NCBI GenBank assembly: GCA_934122275.1
Contig: CAKOWI010000002.1
Location: forward strand, 64,762-128,761
Origin: an uncultured Bacilli bacterium
Lineage (GTDB): Bacteria; Bacillota_I; Bacilli_A; RF39; UBA660
Reading direction: 5' to 3'
DNA length: 64,000 bases
The notes beneath the pieces are model-generated. The model did no database searches and was not told the origin of the DNA. It saw nothing but the letters and a program-made list of their open reading frames with translations. Positions 6,287 through 56,730 of the stretch are shown here, piece after piece. Position 1 is the first letter of the stretch. The number at the start of each line of letters is the position of its first letter. The position numbers and the translations under genes are program-made.

Positions 6287-6607
6287 TGATTTGTGAGAAA
6301 AAAATAATGGAAAATGAATTTAAAAAATTACTAATAAAAGTTTAAAAATGAAAAATAAAATAATAAATACTTTTTTGATATTTCTATTTGGAGTGATACT
6401 AGGAGTATTCTCGAAATGGCTAGATAATTTAAGTATTGATGATTCTGTGTGGTGGCAACATATATTAGGAATATTGGATCTTCGTAATGTGTTTACTTTG
6501 TTTGGAATATGGCTGAATTTCATAATGCAGGATATAAAGGATAATATAATGGTGAAACCGCTGATGATATATTTAAAAGGAAAAAATTACGTTATAGAGA
6601 AGATATT

Positions 6608-6877
6608 TTGGATAATATGAATGAAGATGAATTAGTTGCTAATTTATTTAGAATAAATCAAACTAAGCAAAAACTTTTAAAAGATAATGTACAAGGTGAG
6701 AAAGAAGCAAAAGATGTACATTATGAGGTGGTAAAAAAAGTTAGAAAAGCAATCGCAGATATTGGCGGAATGATGCCTGAAGAAATGCCAACACCTAAAA
6801 AAAGCTTAAAAGAATTAGAAAGAGAAAAGAAAAAATTAGAAATAAAATTGCAAAAGAAACTTGAAGGAATAAAATAG
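6608..6877 (+). CDS. DinD C-terminal-domain-like small protein
   Basis: 89 aa. 'LFRINQTKQKL...HYEVVKKVRKAIADIGGMMPEEMPTPKKSLKELEREKKK' resembles the C-terminal region of DNA-damage-inducible protein D (by memory). Confidence 0.6.
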   Translation: MDNMNEDELVANLFRINQTKQKLLKDNVQGEKEAKDVHYEVVKKVRKAIADIGGMMPEEMPTPKKSLKELEREKKKLEIKLQKKLEGIK

Positions 6878-6885
6878 GAGGAATA

Positions 6886-7455
6886 ATGTCTTTAAAATAT
6901 ATAAATAACATTGAATATGCAAATGAAATAGAAAAATTATATTTAAATTCGTTTCCTAAAGAAGAAAGATTTCCTTTTTGGATACTAGAAGAGTGCTCTA
7001 AAGAAAATAATTCTGATTTATATGCAATTATTGATAATGGTAAATTTGTTGGAATGTGTTATATTGTTAATTGTGTTAGTGCATATTATCTTATGTATTT
7101 AGCAGTAGAACCGAATTTAAGAAACCAAAATTATGGTTCTAGAATATTAAAGGATTTGAAAGAAAAATATAAAGTATTATTTTTATCAATTGATTCACCT
7201 GTTGATAATATAAGTGTTATACGTAAAAATTTTTATTTAAAAAATGGTTTTTATGATACTAATAAATTTTATCAAGATACTGGTATTAATTATGAAGTAT
7301 TATGTACTGATGATAGATATGAAATAACTGATAATATTATGAAGATGAGATATACTAATATGACAAACAATTCTAAAATATTTAATAAAATATCAAATAC
7401 ATTTAATGTTGGTATAATAAATATAAAAATAAAAAAAGAGTTATCAAAAAAATGA
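6886..7455 (+). CDS. GNAT-family acetyltransferase (predicted)
   Basis: 189 aa, RBS 'aggagg'. 'MCYIVNCVSAYYLMYLAVEPNLRNQNYGSRIL' is a GNAT motif A-like segment. Confidence 0.65.
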   Translation: MSLKYINNIEYANEIEKLYLNSFPKEERFPFWILEECSKENNSDLYAIIDNGKFVGMCYIVNCVSAYYLMYLAVEPNLRNQNYGSRILKDLKEKYKVLFLSIDSPVDNISVIRKNFYLKNGFYDTNKFYQDTGINYEVLCTDDRYEITDNIMKMRYTNMTNNSKIFNKISNTFNVGIINIKIKKELSKK

Positions 7456-7473
7456 GAAGATAAAAAGTAAGAA

Positions 7474-7755
7474 ATGAAAATAAAGAGGAAAATAGAAATG
7501 AAAAATGATGATATAATTGAATTATTAGCCGCTTATGAACATGATAGATGGTCGAGATGGCAAAAATATTTGTTTAATAAATGTATAGTTAATGAGGACG
7601 AGACTTTAACTATACCAAAGGAATTAGTCAATAGATGGACAAGACAAATAAACACTGATTATAAAGATTTATCAGAAAAAGAAAAAGATTCTGATAGAAA
7701 AGAAGCAATTAGAATTATGGAATGTATCAAAGATAAGGTGAATTATAATGAGTAA
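7474..7755 (+). CDS. Hypothetical small protein (first gene of an overlapping pair)
   Basis: 93 aa; its stop overlaps the next start by 8 nt. Confidence 0.5.
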   Translation: MKIKRKIEMKNDDIIELLAAYEHDRWSRWQKYLFNKCIVNEDETLTIPKELVNRWTRQINTDYKDLSEKEKDSDRKEAIRIMECIKDKVNYNE

Positions 7756-8248
7756 AGGAATAATAGTTGCAGGATTTGGAGCAATTGGTAAAACAACTCT
7801 TGGAAATAAATATGATAATATTATTGATTTGGAATCAGGTTATTATCAATGGGATAATAAAGGATTTGAAGATATACCTTATGAACAAAGAAAAGGAAAG
7901 AAAGATAGACCCAAAAATAAAGAGTGGCCAACTAATTATCATCATGCGGTTATAGAAGCACAAAATAAATATGATGTGGTATTAACATCAATGCATTGGC
8001 ACTTATTAGATTTTTTTGAAGAAAATAATATAGAATACTATTTAGCATATCCAACTTTGGATAGTGAAAAAGTATTGGAAGAAAGATGTTATGCTAGAGG
8101 AAATAATAATATATTTACAGATAAATTAAAAATAAATTTATATAATTGGAATGAAATAATAAAAGATTATCATCCAAAAAAATTATTGATTATTCAAAAA
8201 AATGAATATCTCGAAGATGTGTTAAAAAATAATGGAATTATTAATTAA
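7748..8248 (+). CDS. P-loop NTPase/kinase-like protein
   Basis: 166 aa; Walker A 'GFGAIGKTT' at the N-terminus. Confidence 0.6.
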   Translation: MSKGIIVAGFGAIGKTTLGNKYDNIIDLESGYYQWDNKGFEDIPYEQRKGKKDRPKNKEWPTNYHHAVIEAQNKYDVVLTSMHWHLLDFFEENNIEYYLAYPTLDSEKVLEERCYARGNNNIFTDKLKINLYNWNEIIKDYHPKKLLIIQKNEYLEDVLKNNGIIN

Positions 8249-23708: not shown

Positions 23709-24707
23709 ATGGATAACAGATTAGTTACTGGAGATAAACTAAAAGAAGATAATTTTGAATCTACTATAAGACCCAGGACTATTGATGAGTATATAGGACA
23801 AAAAGACATAAAAGAAAACATTAAAATTTTTATGGCTGCTGCTAAAATGAGAGGAGAGTCGTTAGATCATGTTTTATTATACGGACCTCCTGGTCTTGGT
23901 AAAACAACCCTTTCTTATGTAATAGCAAATGAAATGGGAGCTAACATTAAAACAGCATCTGGTCCAACTATAGAAAAATCTGGAGATCTTGCATCTATAT
24001 TATCATCACTTGAAGAAGGAGATGTTCTATTTATAGATGAAATACATAGAATTCCTAGATTTGTTGAAGAAATATTATATTCAGCAATGGAAGATTTTAC
24101 TCTTGATATAATGGTTGGAAGTGAAGGTTCAACTAGAAACTTAAGAATAGACTTACCTCATTTTACTTTAGTTGGAGCAACAACTAGAGTTGGTGATTTA
24201 TCCGCACCACTTAGAGATAGATTTGGAATTGTGTCTAAACTTAATTATTATACTGAAGAAGAAATAACCGAAATCATTAAGAGAAGTTCTAGGGTACTTA
24301 ATTTAAATATAGAAGATGATGCAGCTAAAGAGCTTGCAAATAGATGTCGTAGAACTCCTAGAATAGCCAATAGACTATTAAAAAGAGTTAGTGATTTTGC
24401 ACTCGTAAAAGGGGATGGAACTATCACATTAGATATAACTAAGTTTGCTTTAAACTCTTTAAAGGTAGATAAATTAGGATTAGATGAGGTTGATTACGAG
24501 TTATTAAAAACCATTATATATAAGTTTAATGGTGGACCTGTTGGAATAGAAGCAGTAGCGGCATCTATTGGAGAAGAAGTATCTACAATTGAGGATGTAT
24601 GTGAACCTTATTTATTACAAATAGGTTATTTAAAAAGAACACCAAGAGGAAGAGTAGTAACTGATTTAGCATATAAACATTTAAATATTGAAAGGAATAC
24701 AAAATGA
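23709..24707 (+). CDS. ruvB: Holliday junction DNA helicase RuvB
   Basis: '[11 protein letters not shown]', Walker A 'GPPGLGKTT', 'LFIDEIHR'. Confidence 0.96.
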
Positions 24708-26700: not shown

Positions 26701-28202
<1,502 letters not shown>

Positions 28203-35363: not shown

Positions 35364-35406
35364 TTAGCACTCTGGTATTGACATTGCTAATGATACATAT
35401 TATAAT
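35364..35406 (+). promoter_or_regulatory. hrcA promoter (TTGACA-17-TATAAT) overlapping a CIRCE-like inverted repeat
   Basis: TTAGCACTC-tggtattga-CATTGCTAA against the consensus TTAGCACTC-N9-GAGTGCTAA (right arm 7/9); -35 at 35378-35383, -10 at 35401-35406. Confidence 0.55.
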
Positions 35407-35436: not shown

Positions 35437-36429
35437 ATGATAACAGATAGACAAAAGAGGCTTCTTAAACTTATTGTTGAAGAATATATTAAAACAGCAG
35501 TACCCGTCGGATCAAAGGGTCTGTGTGAAAAGCTTAAATGTTCATCAGCAACAATAAGAAATGAGATGGCTACGTTAGAAGATCTCGGTTTTTTAGAGAA
35601 AACTCATACATCATCAGGTAGAGTTCCAAGCGAATCCGGATATAGATTTTATGTAGATAATTTAATGGAACCTAAAAAAATGTCTGGTCAAGATGTACTT
35701 AATCTTCAAAAAATATTTAATAATAAACAGCTAGCATTATCAGATGTAATTACAAGGAGTCTAGAAATAATCTCTGAAATTACTAATTGCACTTCTGTTG
35801 TATTAGGACGTGACAGTTCTAATAATAATTTAAAACAAGTAGAAGTTGTACCACTTAGTAGTGAAAGGGTAATTGCAATAGTAATTACTGATAAAGGACA
35901 TATAGAACATAAAGAAATTAATATAGGTAAAAACGTAGAGCCTAATGATCTTAAGAAGATTATTGATCTAATAAACAAATTATTAGTTGGTACACCAATT
36001 AATGAAATAAGTGCAAAGCTTGAGTTTGAAATTAAACCTATAATTGGTAATTATGTTAAGTCTCATGAGGCGTTGTACCAAGCATTTTATAATGCATTTA
36101 ATGAATTTTCGTTTAAGAGTCATATGCAAATGCAAGGTAGAACTAAACTTCTTGATTATAGAGAGTTTGATGATGTTAATAAAGCTAAAGTGTTATTAAA
36201 GAAATTTGAAGATAATGATATGATAAAAAACATTAAAGCCGAAAATAATGATATAAAAGTTTATATTGGTCATGAAAATAATTTTGATGATGATGTATCA
36301 ATTATTAAAACTAAGTACATAACTAATTCTGAAGAGGGTACTATTGCAATAGTAGGTCCTAAAAGAATGAATTATGAAAAAGTAGTTTCACTACTTGAAT
36401 ACATCAAAGAAAACATAGAAAGGCAATAG
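35437..36429 (+). CDS. hrcA: Heat-inducible transcription repressor HrcA
   Basis: 'TDRQKRLLKLIVEEYIKTAVPVGSK' winged-helix start; 330 aa; heads the grpE-dnaK operon. Confidence 0.92.
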   Translation: MITDRQKRLLKLIVEEYIKTAVPVGSKGLCEKLKCSSATIRNEMATLEDLGFLEKTHTSSGRVPSESGYRFYVDNLMEPKKMSGQDVLNLQKIFNNKQLALSDVITRSLEIISEITNCTSVVLGRDSSNNNLKQVEVVPLSSERVIAIVITDKGHIEHKEINIGKNVEPNDLKKIIDLINKLLVGTPINEISAKLEFEIKPIIGNYVKSHEALYQAFYNAFNEFSFKSHMQMQGRTKLLDYREFDDVNKAKVLLKKFEDNDMIKNIKAENNDIKVYIGHENNFDDDVSIIKTKYITNSEEGTIAIVGPKRMNYEKVVSLLEYIKENIERQ

Positions 36430-53499: not shown

Positions 53500-53551
53500 G
53501 TACCTAAAATAGGTACTTTTTGTGTTATAATTTTTTAGGATGGTGAGAAGT

Positions 53552-54895
53552 ATGGAAATTAAGTTAGACGAAATGCAAGGATATTTAACTAGTGATAGAA
53601 AGTTTGATCAAAAATGTGCTTTAAAAAGCACAGGAGTTAAAGCTGCTATCTGTTACAAGGAAGAAAAAGATGGTAAGCCAGTAAATCAAGATATGATAAG
53701 GGATGAAGAATCTTTATCAACTTTAGTTATTAGAGGATTAAATACAATTTTTCAAGATCACACTACACCTAGTGAACATCAAATGGTAACTCTTGAAATG
53801 ACGGATATTCCAAAAGCATTATGTATGGTTTTAAACAATGAAAAACAGTATACAGCAGATGAAAGATCACTTAGATATACTGAAGTTAAAAAAAATGAAT
53901 ATATTTCTGATAGAGAAGTTGAATTATATAATAAATGGTTAAATATTTTATATGATGTAATTGATAAAAAGCATGGGGATTTTTATAGAAAATACAGTAA
54001 GAATGAAAGTGGTGCTAAAAAAACAATGATAAAGTTAGCACAAGAAAATGCAAGATTTATGGTAAGTGTATTTATGCCTACCTCTATAACATATACTGTT
54101 CCTTGGATTCAAATTAATAAGATAATTACTTACATGCAAAAGGTAATAGATAATCCAATGAATGACTTTGAAAAAAAATTAATACCTTATTTTAAGGAAT
54201 TTATTGATAAGTGTATTAATTTGGATGTTGCTATTACAAAAGATAGCTTGTATAGAAACTTAATTAGTGATGAAAATTTAGAATTAAAGGAAAATGTATT
54301 AAAAAAGTTTCCAGAATTTAAAAACTATAAGGGAGATAAATCGTTAGTATATAAAAATAATAAAAACGTAGACTTAAGTTTATTTGCAAATAGAAATCCT
54401 TTTTCTGGTATAAATGGTAATAATGAATATGGATATAATATTTCTTATAATAATTTAGAGTCTTTTGTTTGTTTAGCACAAGAACAAAGACATAGAACTT
54501 GTAATTGTGAAATGCTTATTCCAGATGAATTTTCGTCTTATATACCACCAATTATTTTGGATGATGATAAATTAATTAGTATGTGGGTTAATGACATTAC
54601 TTCTGTTAAAGAAGTTTATCCTAACGGGCAATTAGTTAAAGTTAATAGGTGTGCAGCTTTAAAAGATATACTAAAGTTTATTGCACAAGAAAGAGCTTGT
54701 GATAGGGCACAATTAGAAATAGAGAAGGTATACGTTGATGATATGATACCAGATATATATGAAAATTTAAAAAAGCAAGGTAATGATGCTCTTGCAGATA
54801 ATGTTTATCCTTATGTTAAAAAGTTAAGATGTTCATTTCCAGGATATCATTGTCCAGGTACTTGTGGTCATCCTAGAATTAATAGAGACTTATAA
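53552..54895 (+). CDS. Divergent, apparently tandem ThyX-like (flavin-dependent thymidylate synthase fold) protein with Cys/His-rich C-terminus
   Basis: Numbering from the 53540 ORF start. aa 74-113 'HTTPSEHQMVTLEMTDIPKALCMVLNNEKQYTADERSLRY' aligns to the ThyX 'H.SV.EH...RHR.......S.RY' block with NEK in place of RHR. aa 166-200 is 'ARFMVSVFMPTSITYTVPWIQINKI'. A second core at aa 311-319 is 'CLAQEQRHR'. aa 368-397 'VNRCAALKDILKFIAQERACDRAQLEIEK' resembles the ThyX C-terminal 'VNxR.L..F...R....AQxEI'. Tail is 'CSFPGYHCPGTCGHP'. Confidence 0.55.
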   Translation: MEIKLDEMQGYLTSDRKFDQKCALKSTGVKAAICYKEEKDGKPVNQDMIRDEESLSTLVIRGLNTIFQDHTTPSEHQMVTLEMTDIPKALCMVLNNEKQYTADERSLRYTEVKKNEYISDREVELYNKWLNILYDVIDKKHGDFYRKYSKNESGAKKTMIKLAQENARFMVSVFMPTSITYTVPWIQINKIITYMQKVIDNPMNDFEKKLIPYFKEFIDKCINLDVAITKDSLYRNLISDENLELKENVLKKFPEFKNYKGDKSLVYKNNKNVDLSLFANRNPFSGINGNNEYGYNISYNNLESFVCLAQEQRHRTCNCEMLIPDEFSSYIPPIILDDDKLISMWVNDITSVKEVYPNGQLVKVNRCAALKDILKFIAQERACDRAQLEIEKVYVDDMIPDIYENLKKQGNDALADNVYPYVKKLRCSFPGYHCPGTCGHPRINRDL

Positions 54896-54926
54896 AAAAG
54901 AAACACGCTTGTGTTTCTTTTTTTAA
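54894..54926. terminator. Bidirectional terminator between convergent genes
   Basis: A-run, then agaaacac-gctt-gtgtttct, then T-run. Confidence 0.7.
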
Positions 54927-55936
54927 TAATCATTTAAATCAACATTTTCCTTATCTAAGTATTCTTTAAATTCAACTTTAAATTTTTCTGCTTCTTTTTT
55001 TATAACATCAGAATATACACTTTGACAATTCATAATTGCTTTATATATGTGCTTAAATGTTACAACTTCACTATTATCAAATTTAGCATAGCTAAATGCC
55101 TTCGATAATAAAGCTAAAGCATTATCAGGATATCTTGAACCTAGTTCGTAAATTCTTTTATATTCACTAGTCATATCAACTATAAATTTCATAATATTTT
55201 CTATTGTAAAAGTAGAGTATTGTAATTTAACACCCGTTTTCTTTTCTATTCTTGGATAAGAACCCATTAGAATTTTAACGGTAGTTTCTGCATCCGGTTC
55301 TTCAACATCTATTTTTTCAAAACGTCTTAGAAATGCTTTATCTCTTATTAAATACTGATTATATTCATCAAGTGTTGTTGCACCTATTACTTTTATATCT
55401 CCTCTTGAAAGAGCTGGTTTCATAGCATTTAAAAAATCAGTTCCACTTTTTCTTGATTCTATTACAAGAGTATGTATCTCATCTATAAATAGTATTGTAT
55501 TGCTCGCATTTTCAAGTTCATTAAGTAAAATATTAATTCTTAATTCTTCAGTTCCATCATCGCTTGTATATGTTCCTAATAATTGTGATGTATTAACTTT
55601 TATAATATCATAATTACTAATTGCTTTAGGTACAGTATTATTTTGAATTTTATACGCAATACCTTCTACAATAGCAGTTTTACCAATACCAGCTTTACCA
55701 ACTAATATTGCAGATTTATCTGGAGTAAGTAAAGTTAATATTGTTTTTTCAATTTCACTATCTCTAGCTATAGCAGGATTAGTAACATAGGTTTTAGTAC
55801 TTAAATTTTCTCCATATTTTTCAAGAACACTTTTTCTTTTCTTATCTTCTTTTTTTTCATCTGTATTTTTATCATTATTACTAACGTCATCAAAAGTTAA
55901 AGTTTCATCTTCTACAATATCAAACATATCATCCAT
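54923..55936 (-). CDS. Clp/Hsp100 D1-module-only AAA+ ATPase (no N-domain, no D2)
   Basis: Collinear with the ClpB/ClpC D1 module: 'LEKYG.NL', Walker A 'ILVGKAGIGKTAIVEGIA', 'ILFIDEIHTLV', 'PALSRGDIKVIGATTLDEY', 'RRFEKI', then an alpha-helical lid; 337 aa. Confidence 0.8.
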   Translation of the reverse strand: MDDMFDIVEDETLTFDDVSNNDKNTDEKKEDKKRKSVLEKYGENLSTKTYVTNPAIARDSEIEKTILTLLTPDKSAILVGKAGIGKTAIVEGIAYKIQNNTVPKAISNYDIIKVNTSQLLGTYTSDDGTEELRINILLNELENASNTILFIDEIHTLVIESRKSGTDFLNAMKPALSRGDIKVIGATTLDEYNQYLIRDKAFLRRFEKIDVEEPDAETTVKILMGSYPRIEKKTGVKLQYSTFTIENIMKFIVDMTSEYKRIYELGSRYPDNALALLSKAFSYAKFDNSEVVTFKHIYKAIMNCQSVYSDVIKKEAEKFKVEFKEYLDKENVDLNDY

Positions 55937-56112
55937 ACTTATACCTTCTTTCTAGATAATTATAACATGATTTTTAATTATTTTATTTGTAAATATACAC
56001 TTAAAATAAAAAAATTAATTAATTAATAAAAAATACTTTAAAAAATGTATAATTGTGTTACAATATTACTTGTAATGTTACTAGATAAATAATTATATAA
56101 GAGGTGTGTAGT

Positions 56113-56730
56113 ATGAAAGATTTATTAGCATCAGTATCTTATTCTTTTAATAATTTTTATGATACTTTAAATGATCAAGGTAAGGCTGTTTTTTCTATAA
56201 TTTTATTTTTAATAGTTATTTTATGTATTATACTTTTGATATCTTACATTATAAATATAATAAAAAGTAAAGTAAGACTAGAAAAAATTAAAAAAGCTCC
56301 AAGCCACGAGATAAAAAAAGAAGATAATAGTTTAAAACAGGAAAATAAAAATAGTGTTAAAGAAGAAACGATAGAATACGAAGAAAAAACAGAAATCATG
56401 AATATCAGAGATAGTATTGAAAAGGCATTAAAGGAAGATGCACCAATAACACTTACTAATTTTGAAGAAGATCAAGAAAAAACTGCCATTATATCAATAG
56501 ATGAACTTATGGCAAAAGCAAAAGAACTTCAAATAATTTCTGATGAAGAGAATACGGGAGTTAATTATTTAGAAAAATATAATATTAAACCTAGTGATGT
56601 AGAAGAAATGGTTAGTAATACTACTTCAAATTCTAAAAAACAACAAGAAGGAGAAGTAAAAGCATTTAGAGTCTCACAAGTTATATCACCAATATATGGT
56701 GTAAAAAAAGAAGTAATAAATAATAAGTAG
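56113..56730 (+). CDS. Hypothetical bitopic membrane protein (acidic cytoplasmic/extracellular tail)
   Basis: TM 'VFSIILFLIVILCIILLISYIINII'; RBS 'gaggtg'; followed by the terminator agagctt-aa-agctct-T7. Confidence 0.55.
   Translation: MKDLLASVSYSFNNFYDTLNDQGKAVFSIILFLIVILCIILLISYIINIIKSKVRLEKIKKAPSHEIKKEDNSLKQENKNSVKEETIEYEEKTEIMNIRDSIEKALKEDAPITLTNFEEDQEKTAIISIDELMAKAKELQIISDEENTGVNYLEKYNIKPSDVEEMVSNTTSNSKKQQEGEVKAFRVSQVISPIYGVKKEVINNK

Follow-up and report, generated by a model that had tools for sequence, protein, structure and literature searches.

We found that a 64,000-nucleotide stretch of DNA from an uncultured Bacilli bacterium of the lineage RF39 (contig CAKOWI010000002.1; by the window we mean this whole stretch) carries an intact, independently transcribed and selectively maintained gene for a stand-alone D1-type ATPase, that is, a protein made of the first nucleotide-binding module of the Clp/Hsp100 machines between tails that are predicted to be disordered. 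Both this D1-only architecture and its tail motifs, which are relocatable between the two termini, are new. We propose, with a probability of about 0.6 and from the sequence evidence below, that the protein acts as a ClpP-independent, single-ring ATPase that would be recruited through its tails to a partner or client, which the ring would remodel. The gene and the main parts of its ATPase core are placed as follows (subfamilies A and B are two groups of relatives that are defined further below):

54923..55936, minus strand: coding sequence of the stand-alone Clp/Hsp100 D1-type AAA+ ATPase, from the list of open reading frames (ATG start, 337 residues, TAA stop).
55301..55831, minus strand: D1 N-linker and large (alpha/beta) AAA+ subdomain, residues 36-212, from HMMER alignment, AlphaFold2 and Foldseek.
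55676..55699, minus strand: Walker A, GKAGIGKT from G80 to T87, with G80, K81, G83, G85, K86 and T87 invariant in the family alignments.
55472..55495, minus strand: Walker B, ILFIDEIH from I148 to H155, with I148, L149, F150, D152, E153 and H155 invariant and D152 and E153 catalytic.
55373..55384, minus strand: sensor-1 region, GATT from G185 to T188, invariant in subfamily A.
55322..55327, minus strand: arginine fingers R204-R205 (RRF), invariant in subfamily A and nearly so in subfamily B.
54926..55300, minus strand: D1 small (lid) domain and C-terminal helices, residues 213-337, with the family-specific motifs TSEYKRxY, SRYPD and [IV]YxDVIKKE.

An earlier note on this DNA, made from its letters, had described the open reading frame as a D1-type Clp module, and profile models, PDB matches and Foldseek all point to D1. 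HMMER aligned residues 36-212 to residues 146-365 of Escherichia coli ClpB and 158-391 of ClpA, and the match to ClpB does not extend beyond D1. The sole Pfam domain in the protein is PF00004 (AAA) at residues 77-206 (E 1.6e-13, above the cutoff), and Pfam gave neither a Clp_N match nor a match to a D1-lid model at E<=1. The NCBIfam models for ClpA, ClpB and TssH/ClpV were matched through their D1 positions alone (147-376 of 734 in ClpA; 135-431 of 853 in ClpB), with scores five- to sevenfold under the whole-protein cutoffs (for example, 189 bits versus 993). Among PDB sequences, the top matches were the D1 modules of ClpB, ClpA, PfHSP101, ClpC, Hsp104 and ClpC1 (E 7.5e-39 to 1e-27), and the next AAA+ family was VAT/CDC48 at E 2e-7. 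The AlphaFold2 model, built from an alignment of 60 sequences, has a canonical alpha/beta subdomain and a helical lid (mean predicted local distance difference test score, pLDDT, 81; predicted template modelling score 0.76), and the best Foldseek matches to it in the PDB were again D1 modules, of ClpC1, ClpC, ClpA, ClpB and Hsp104 (E ~1e-16). All four motifs that the note had quoted, GKAGIGKT, ILFIDEIH, GATT and RRF, are present and invariant across the family, as judged in alignments of 11, 60 and 119 relatives. By its sequence and its predicted fold, the protein is an AAA+ ATPase of the Clp/Hsp100 D1 clade.

The other parts of a Clp protein are missing. Residues 1-32 have a pLDDT below 50 and are predicted to be disordered, with no folded N-domain; the predicted lid is made of short helices at residues 216-329, with no long coiled-coil and hence no middle (M) domain; and the tripeptide [ILV]-G-[FL], which marks the IGF/LGF loop that binds ClpP, is absent from the sequence, as is the second module (D2) that would bear it. 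Pfam, AlphaFold2, tblastn and the sequence itself in this way confirm that the protein has no Clp N-domain, M-domain, D2 or ClpP loop, as had been claimed.

Collinearity with D1 alone, together with the name 'ATP-dependent Clp protease ATP-binding subunit' that some database homologues carry, might suggest the remnant of a broken clpB, clpC or clpA, or an assembly or frameshift artefact that masks a D2. We give this explanation practically no chance. The stop codon of the ATPase gene runs straight into a hairpin, which in turn adjoins the stop of a convergent gene for a 451-residue ThyX-like protein (53540-54895):

54894..54923, no strand assigned: bidirectional intrinsic-terminator hairpin (A-tract, 13-bp stem, T-tract) between the stops of the two convergent genes.

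RNA folding revealed this hairpin (-14.7 kcal/mol, z = -5.4, with 0 of 200 shuffles equally stable), which a simple consensus terminator scan did not list. A D2 in an adjacent frame, for which the earlier note had allowed, was looked for by tblastn over the whole window with six long multi-module Clp-like relatives; no D2 appeared in any frame, and AAA+ similarity was confined to 54950-55828 and, weakly, to RuvB (23709-24707). Every one of the best 120 database clusters (81-100% identity, many independent assemblies) has a length of 333-342 residues, and the gene has a single module at 80 out of 80 species-level loci. When compared with twelve orthologues of 73-87% identity, the ATPase has a ratio of nonsynonymous to synonymous substitution rates (dN/dS) of 0.09-0.17 at a dS of ~1. 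The C-terminal tip is invariant as well. The constant lengths, the dN/dS, the terminator, the convergent gene and the lack of a D2 together rule out a remnant or artefact, and the note was right to remark that the gene is not an obvious fragment.

To place the protein among its relatives, we used a HMMER scan of 1.84 billion 50%-identity representatives, which returned 1753 proteins at E<=1e-30. The best 150 of the 1753 split into two subfamilies and mostly end where the window ATPase ends. Members of subfamily A (at least 50% identity to the window protein) consist of D1 and lid with low-complexity, unstructured extensions on the N- or C-side, in which Pfam finds no domain, and range in total length from 317 to 1022 residues. 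The window protein is 50-61% identical to diverse members of subfamily A and carries all of its lid motifs, its N-tip motif and its C-tip motif; by sequence, it belongs to an RF39-type D1-only family, which we define here as subfamily A. Proteins of subfamily B share 35-45% identity with it over D1, are mostly 430-600 residues long, and have a folded N-domain of ~170-200 residues ahead of the D1 module; 88 of 92 representatives end within 25 residues of the end point of the window protein. The N-domain is helical (AlphaFold2 pLDDT 90), and its best structural matches are Clp N-domains, weakly matched. The RF39-type family is sister to this larger Firmicute group of N-domain plus D1 proteins. 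One such protein is HIW59215.1 of Candidatus Anaerobutyricum avicola, which carries no annotation beyond 'AAA family ATPase'; its gene, like that in the window, is solitary, lies on the opposite strand to its neighbours and has no Clp neighbour. The sister family shares the end point and the lack of a D2 with the window protein, but differs from it in its folded N-domain and its canonical aromatic pore loop. Among more distant relatives, we also observed proteins of 750-1335 residues (P0155, P0156, P0161, P0263 and P0254; also P0216, P0223, P0224 and P0250) that carry two or three tandem D1-like modules, rather than D1 plus D2, each copy of which gives a match of its own to the window protein.

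The earlier note had called a single-ring Hsp100-like ATPase of this size unusual, which holds for its architecture but not for its frequency: a scan of one genome per GTDB species, with patterns drawn only from the family-specific lid, found a relative in at least 570 species genomes, and the relatives amount to thousands of protein clusters. All 80 loci that we retained come from metagenome-assembled genomes of uncultured gut bacteria, labelled as Bacilli, Tenericutes, Mollicutes, Erysipelotrichaceae, Candidatus Aphodocola, Ventrenecus, Coprovivens or Coprobacillus CAG:605; Aphodocola and Coprovivens have been placed in the GTDB order RF39 (PMC8035907). Several contigs bear other labels, namely 'uncultured Muribaculaceae', 'uncultured Clostridium sp.' or 'Paratractidigestivibacter sp.' (L001, L004, L006, L010, L016, L017, L020, L033, L049, L051 and L080). 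They carry the same ATPase at 55-90% identity and share the synteny wherever flanking DNA exists, which clearly places them in one low-GC Bacilli lineage; the labels are probably wrong or the contigs mis-binned. In databases, family members are called 'AAA family ATPase' or 'ATP-dependent Clp protease ATP-binding subunit', the latter of which is probably wrong for these proteins, because everything needed for ClpP binding is absent. No curated family, defence-system model or phage family in Pfam, NCBIfam, PHROG or PADLOC claims the D1-only proteins, and full-text literature searches turned up no study of a D1-only Clp family. We rejected a reading as a defence ATPase, for which PADLOC gave only generic AAA matches (E>=1e-5); as a phage family, where PHROG 4871 is a two-module Clp profile of 764 positions that is matched along its D1 part; and as a mobile element, where the matching phage and plasmid records (<=40% identity) are ordinary Clp genes. 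The note had also raised the possibility of a known short AAA family unrelated to Clp; none claims the protein, which is far closer to Clp D1 modules than to anything else.

In contrast to the ATPase site, the region that corresponds to pore loop 1 has diverged:

55541..55582, minus strand: pore-loop-1 region, residues 119-132 (LLGTYTSDDGTEEL), non-canonical and acidic, from HMMER alignment to ClpB and MAFFT L-INS-i.

Both HMMER and MAFFT L-INS-i align the K-Y-R-G of Clp D1 with S-D-D-G of the window protein, such that the column of the canonical tyrosine holds Asp126, with Tyr123 three alignment positions upstream. In the window clade, the loop reads LLG[KT]Yxx[ED]DGxEEL, and its K-Y could also derive from the ancestral one, with a short acidic stretch inserted after it. 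Other members of subfamily A have a loop with three residues fewer (LLGT[ML]PxGE), which contains no aromatic residue in 25 of 26 representatives; in subfamily B, 85 of 92 retain one. A loss of the pore-loop tyrosine, which applies to most of the family, is not a safe reading of the window protein, the window clade having retained [KT]-Y three positions upstream. What can safely be said from these alignments is that the loop of the window protein is non-canonical and acidic, and that most of the family has no aromatic residue there. The earlier statement that every catalytic signature is intact is therefore correct for the ATPase site but not for pore loop 1, where K-Y-R-G is replaced by T-Y-T-S-D-D-G.

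The tails carry the second distinguishing feature of the family:

55886..55936, minus strand: N-terminal tip motif, residues 1-17 (MDDMFDIVEDETLTFDD), a conserved acidic-hydrophobic short linear motif (pLDDT ~33).
55832..55885, minus strand: variable disordered linker, residues 18-35, which ends in the basic cluster KKEDKKRK (pLDDT <50 to residue 32).
54926..54943, minus strand: C-terminal tip motif VDLNDY-COOH, residues 332-337, near-invariant in the closest clusters.

At the N-terminus, MD[DE]xF[DE]I[VI]EDETLx[FL]D[DE] is conserved over the clade of 81-100% identity, and residues 18-35 differ in sequence and length between close orthologues. At the extreme C-terminus, ~117 of the 120 closest clusters have EKENVDLNDY with essentially no change, and this stretch is better conserved than the helix that precedes it. 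A short charged tail does stand in place of the Clp N-domain, as the note had it, but this tail is not featureless, given its 17-residue motif and the second motif at the C-terminus. Relatives that have a C-terminal linker carry tails of the form [IV]DL[ND]L...[DE][YF], which the VDLNDY tip resembles. Throughout subfamily A, linkers measure ~5 to ~730 residues, occur at either terminus and have acidic-hydrophobic distal tips. C-terminal linkers end in ...DDDIEIL, ...DDDFFFE, ...FDDFYDK or ...KEDYLYEE, often with [IV]DLNLD before, and N-terminal linkers start with M..NRFIFSDDFYDxL, MDEKIEILDLE or REIINIDELLE. The motif FFDDFY is common to both kinds of linker: P0364 and P0391 have it within the N-terminal one, and in P0133 and P0141 it stands at the extreme C-terminus. 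One of three strict motifs is present in the last 15 residues of 70 out of 87 non-redundant C-terminal linkers, and in 7 out of 590 interior 30-residue linker segments; a looser composition test was passed by 76% of C-terminal tips, 54% of N-terminal tips and 14% of interior segments. A tethered docking peptide would be expected to look like this, with a tip that is conserved, a linker that varies and a place at either end of the protein. The C-terminal acidic DDLYG tail of p97/VCP, the DDDIPF tip of SSB and the C-terminal peptide of FtsZ are docking tips on variable linkers, and the family resembles them in combining a globular oligomer, a variable linker and a short acidic-hydrophobic tip. 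This is an analogy without sequence homology, and unlike in these three proteins, the motif of the window family can sit at either terminus.

We propose the following mechanism. The D1 interfaces would assemble the protein into a single hexameric ring that hydrolyses ATP; we infer this from the arginine fingers, whose conservation implies that each subunit acts on the ATP of another. Such a ring would be unable to feed ClpP and would lack the DnaK coupling of ClpB, since there is no D2 to bear an IGF/LGF loop, no coiled-coil M-domain and no CIRCE element (controlling inverted repeat of chaperone expression) nearby. The terminal tail motifs would serve as docking peptides that bring the ring to a partner or client, which the ring would then remodel. 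As far as its sequence can tell, the pore loop, altered and acidic as it is, favours a specialised client over general protein unfolding. In the RF39-type branch, disordered linkers of very variable length at either terminus take the place of the N-domain of the sister branch. As a broader and rather doubtful extension, D1-only Clp proteins might constitute a third architectural class of Hsp100 beside the two-ring class I and the D2-type class II, in which recognition of substrates or adaptors has moved from a folded N-domain to acidic-hydrophobic peptides, tethered at either terminus by linkers of 5 to more than 700 residues. The ring would in that case be a remodeller or assembly hub recruited by partners, not a general unfoldase or part of a protease, and in genome-reduced gut Bacilli it might be a principal Hsp100-type machine.

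Several observations weigh against the tail-recruited remodeller. The window clade retains a tyrosine near its pore loop, and ordinary threading by way of this [KT]-Y is possible. No neighbour is conserved across the whole family at the 80 loci, and because of this no partner can be named; the orthologues and their neighbourhoods, to which the earlier note had pointed, proved plentiful and without a family-wide conserved gene, respectively. The N-terminal motifs resemble the C-terminal ones in character, but fit the regular expressions of the latter in only a few proteins. Finally, AT-rich composition by itself favours sequence rich in D, E, F, I and Y, for which the interior linker segments are the control.

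The alternative closest to a known chaperone is a minimal single-ring unfoldase or disaggregase, a 'mini-ClpB' that threads misfolded proteins alongside DnaK in heat shock. The ATPase site is complete, Tyr123 adjoins the pore loop with K-Y there in most close relatives, and 85 of the 92 subfamily B representatives have the canonical aromatic loop. In addition, the gene of the window clade stands at the tail of an extended dnaK cluster (hrcA-grpE-dnaK-pepF-dnaJ ... rsmE-x-mtaB), and dnaJ or dnaK lies within ~6 kb of the ATPase gene in L019 and L044. However, the M-domain is the element by which DnaK docks on ClpB, and the AlphaFold2 model has none. The gene lies on the opposite strand with its own promoter, with neither a CIRCE nor another heat-shock operator upstream, and it is not near dnaK outside the window clade. 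Moreover, the canonical tyrosine column holds an aspartate at an acidic loop tip, and most of the family has no aromatic pore residue. On balance, we consider a mini-ClpB unlikely.

It is quite improbable, in our view, that the protein is an accessory subunit or regulator of a full-length ClpC, ClpE, ClpB or ClpX, either co-assembling through D1 or binding through its tails in the manner of an adaptor or anti-adaptor. The D1 interface residues (arginine fingers, sensor-1) are conserved, tethered peptide motifs would suit recognition by a domain of another protein, and ClpT and ClpC2 (PDB 8ad9) offer a precedent for stand-alone Clp pieces that regulate full machines. Yet none of 83 loci has an adjacent Clp gene, the identity of ~30-33% to every Clp class excludes a recent copy of a host Clp D1, and the catalytic site has been kept whole, although a passive regulator could do without it. 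A loader or remodeller of nucleic acids or ribonucleoproteins, tied to neighbouring RNA-modification and DNA-repair genes, would account for the window-clade neighbours rsmE, mtaB and recD2, for the basic cluster KKEDKKRK ahead of the core and for weak matches to TniB, Orc1/Cdc6 and IstB models. These matches are generic P-loop/AAA matches, 25-30 orders of magnitude weaker than those to Clp, the neighbourhood is conserved in one clade only, and no nucleic-acid-binding domain was found in the ATPase, all of which makes such a role highly improbable.

When compared with established systems, the window ATPase is homologous over residues 24-330 to the D1 of class I Clp proteins (ClpA, ClpC/ClpC1, ClpB/Hsp104, ClpE, ClpL and ClpV), at the identity just given. 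It descends from such a module and would work like one. Features common to the two are the PxIxRDxEI N-linker, Walker A and B, sensor-1, RRF and a second loop D-[FA]-x-N-x-x-K-P, and the small domain of the window ATPase is complete and ClpA-like, with no inserted M-domain. Beyond the Clp parts that it lacks, it differs from them in its T-Y-T-S-D-D-G pore loop, its divergent lid and its disordered tails with terminal motifs. With ClpX, HslU/ClpY and human CLPB/Skd3 it shares the single AAA+ ring of the Hsp100 family. All three have a D2-type module. A peptidase is the docking partner of ClpX and HslU, and Skd3 bears ankyrin repeats (PMC7343390, PMC9934407). By its best sequence matches, the window ATPase is of the D1 type, unlike all three. 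ClpI of Actinomycetota is another Clp class that was defined by bioinformatics and has a variable N-terminal region (PMC10149685), but it has two rings, an M-domain and, in one of its subclasses, LGF loops, whereas the window ATPase has one module. The window ATPase should not be filed as ClpA, ClpB, ClpC or a ClpP partner, because it lacks the two modules, the N-domain, the M-domain and the ClpP loop.

The expression signals of the gene were read from the sequence:

55959-55967, minus strand: extended -10 promoter TGTTATAAT.
55944-55950, minus strand: ribosome-binding site AAGAAGG.

TGnTATAAT and GAAAGAAGG are found at an equal distance upstream of the ATPase genes of orthologues. A consensus promoter scan did not list this promoter, for want of a -35 hexamer. 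The aligned upstream regions of the orthologues hold just the extended -10 element and the ribosome-binding site, with no heat-shock operator, and the sole CIRCE-like repeat in the window (35364-35390, plus strand, TTAGCACTC-N9-...TGCTAA, 2 mismatches) precedes hrcA, which starts at 35437. In many orthologues, a direct repeat T[TA]AGTAAA(C)-N5-7-TAGTAAA stands ~35-60 nt upstream of the -10 element, with variable spacing (L003, L012, L013, L015, L016, L021-L024 and L074). It fits neither the CtsR nor the CIRCE consensus and could be an operator or part of the divergent rsmE/ndk promoter; the window lacks it, and the divergent neighbour in the window also differs.

The context of the ATPase gene in the window is chromosomal housekeeping. 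Strand bias is extreme, with nearly all genes on the plus strand and a GC skew of ~+0.3 throughout; the only credible minus-strand genes are the ATPase gene and that of a DUF3792 protein (27825-28202), and the 54-56 kb bin is the only one in which the skew falls to ~0. The hrcA-grpE-dnaK-pepF-dnaJ genes span 35.4-41.8 kb, with the gene for oligoendopeptidase F inserted between dnaK and dnaJ. When all open reading frames were clustered across the 80 loci, the ATPase gene of the window clade was found to diverge from the genes that close the extended dnaK cluster (those for rsmE, a small membrane protein, mtaB and recD2), and the rsmE/membrane protein/mtaB neighbourhood was restricted to this clade plus L019 and L044. 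The window itself is missing rsmE at the position where its relatives carry it. More distant clades have a YitT-family membrane protein, an NAD-binding protein or ABC transporters as neighbours. In L044, a relative with 61% identity, a spoIIGA-like and sigE-like pair (6387-7857) lies between the convergent ATPase gene and dnaJ, which by sequence would fit the retention of sporulation genes predicted for RF39 lineages (PMC10868615).

On the convergent side, the gene varies among loci, being ThyX-like, thyA-folA or others. In the window, the 451-residue protein (53540-54895, plus strand) matches ThyX (Thy1) only in part (residues 33-187, E 2.8e-9). It contains an RHR motif, its C-terminus is Cys-rich (CSFPGYHCPGTCGHP), and it matches no NCBIfam or PHROG family. 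Many orthologous loci carry a thyA-folA pair at this position, as a comparison of L003, L020 and L021 with L002, L008, L011-L013, L015, L022, L023 and L074 illustrates, so thymidylate-synthase types alternate between close lineages. On the other side, 56104-56730 (plus strand) encodes a 208-residue single-pass membrane protein that has no family match and lies between rsmE and mtaB in relatives. Its cytoplasmic motifs FEEDQEKTAIISIDEL..AKEL and, at the C-terminus, VSQVISP[IV]YGVKK are conserved, and its 'IISIDEL' resembles the N-tip motifs I[IV]NIDE[LI]L of some ATPases of subfamily A, a likeness that may be due to chance.

Accepted Clp/Hsp100 classes comprise two-module (ClpA, ClpB, ClpC) and one-module, D2-type (ClpX, HslU) motors that remodel proteins. 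The hosts of the D1-only family, RF39-type Bacilli, are abundant uncultured members of human and animal gut communities with reduced genomes, whose proteostasis is essentially unstudied. That such a family is widespread and under purifying selection shows that D1 can persist as a protein in its own right. It is a natural minimal system in which to ask how a D1 ring works alone, and its terminal motifs can be used as peptide baits for partner discovery.

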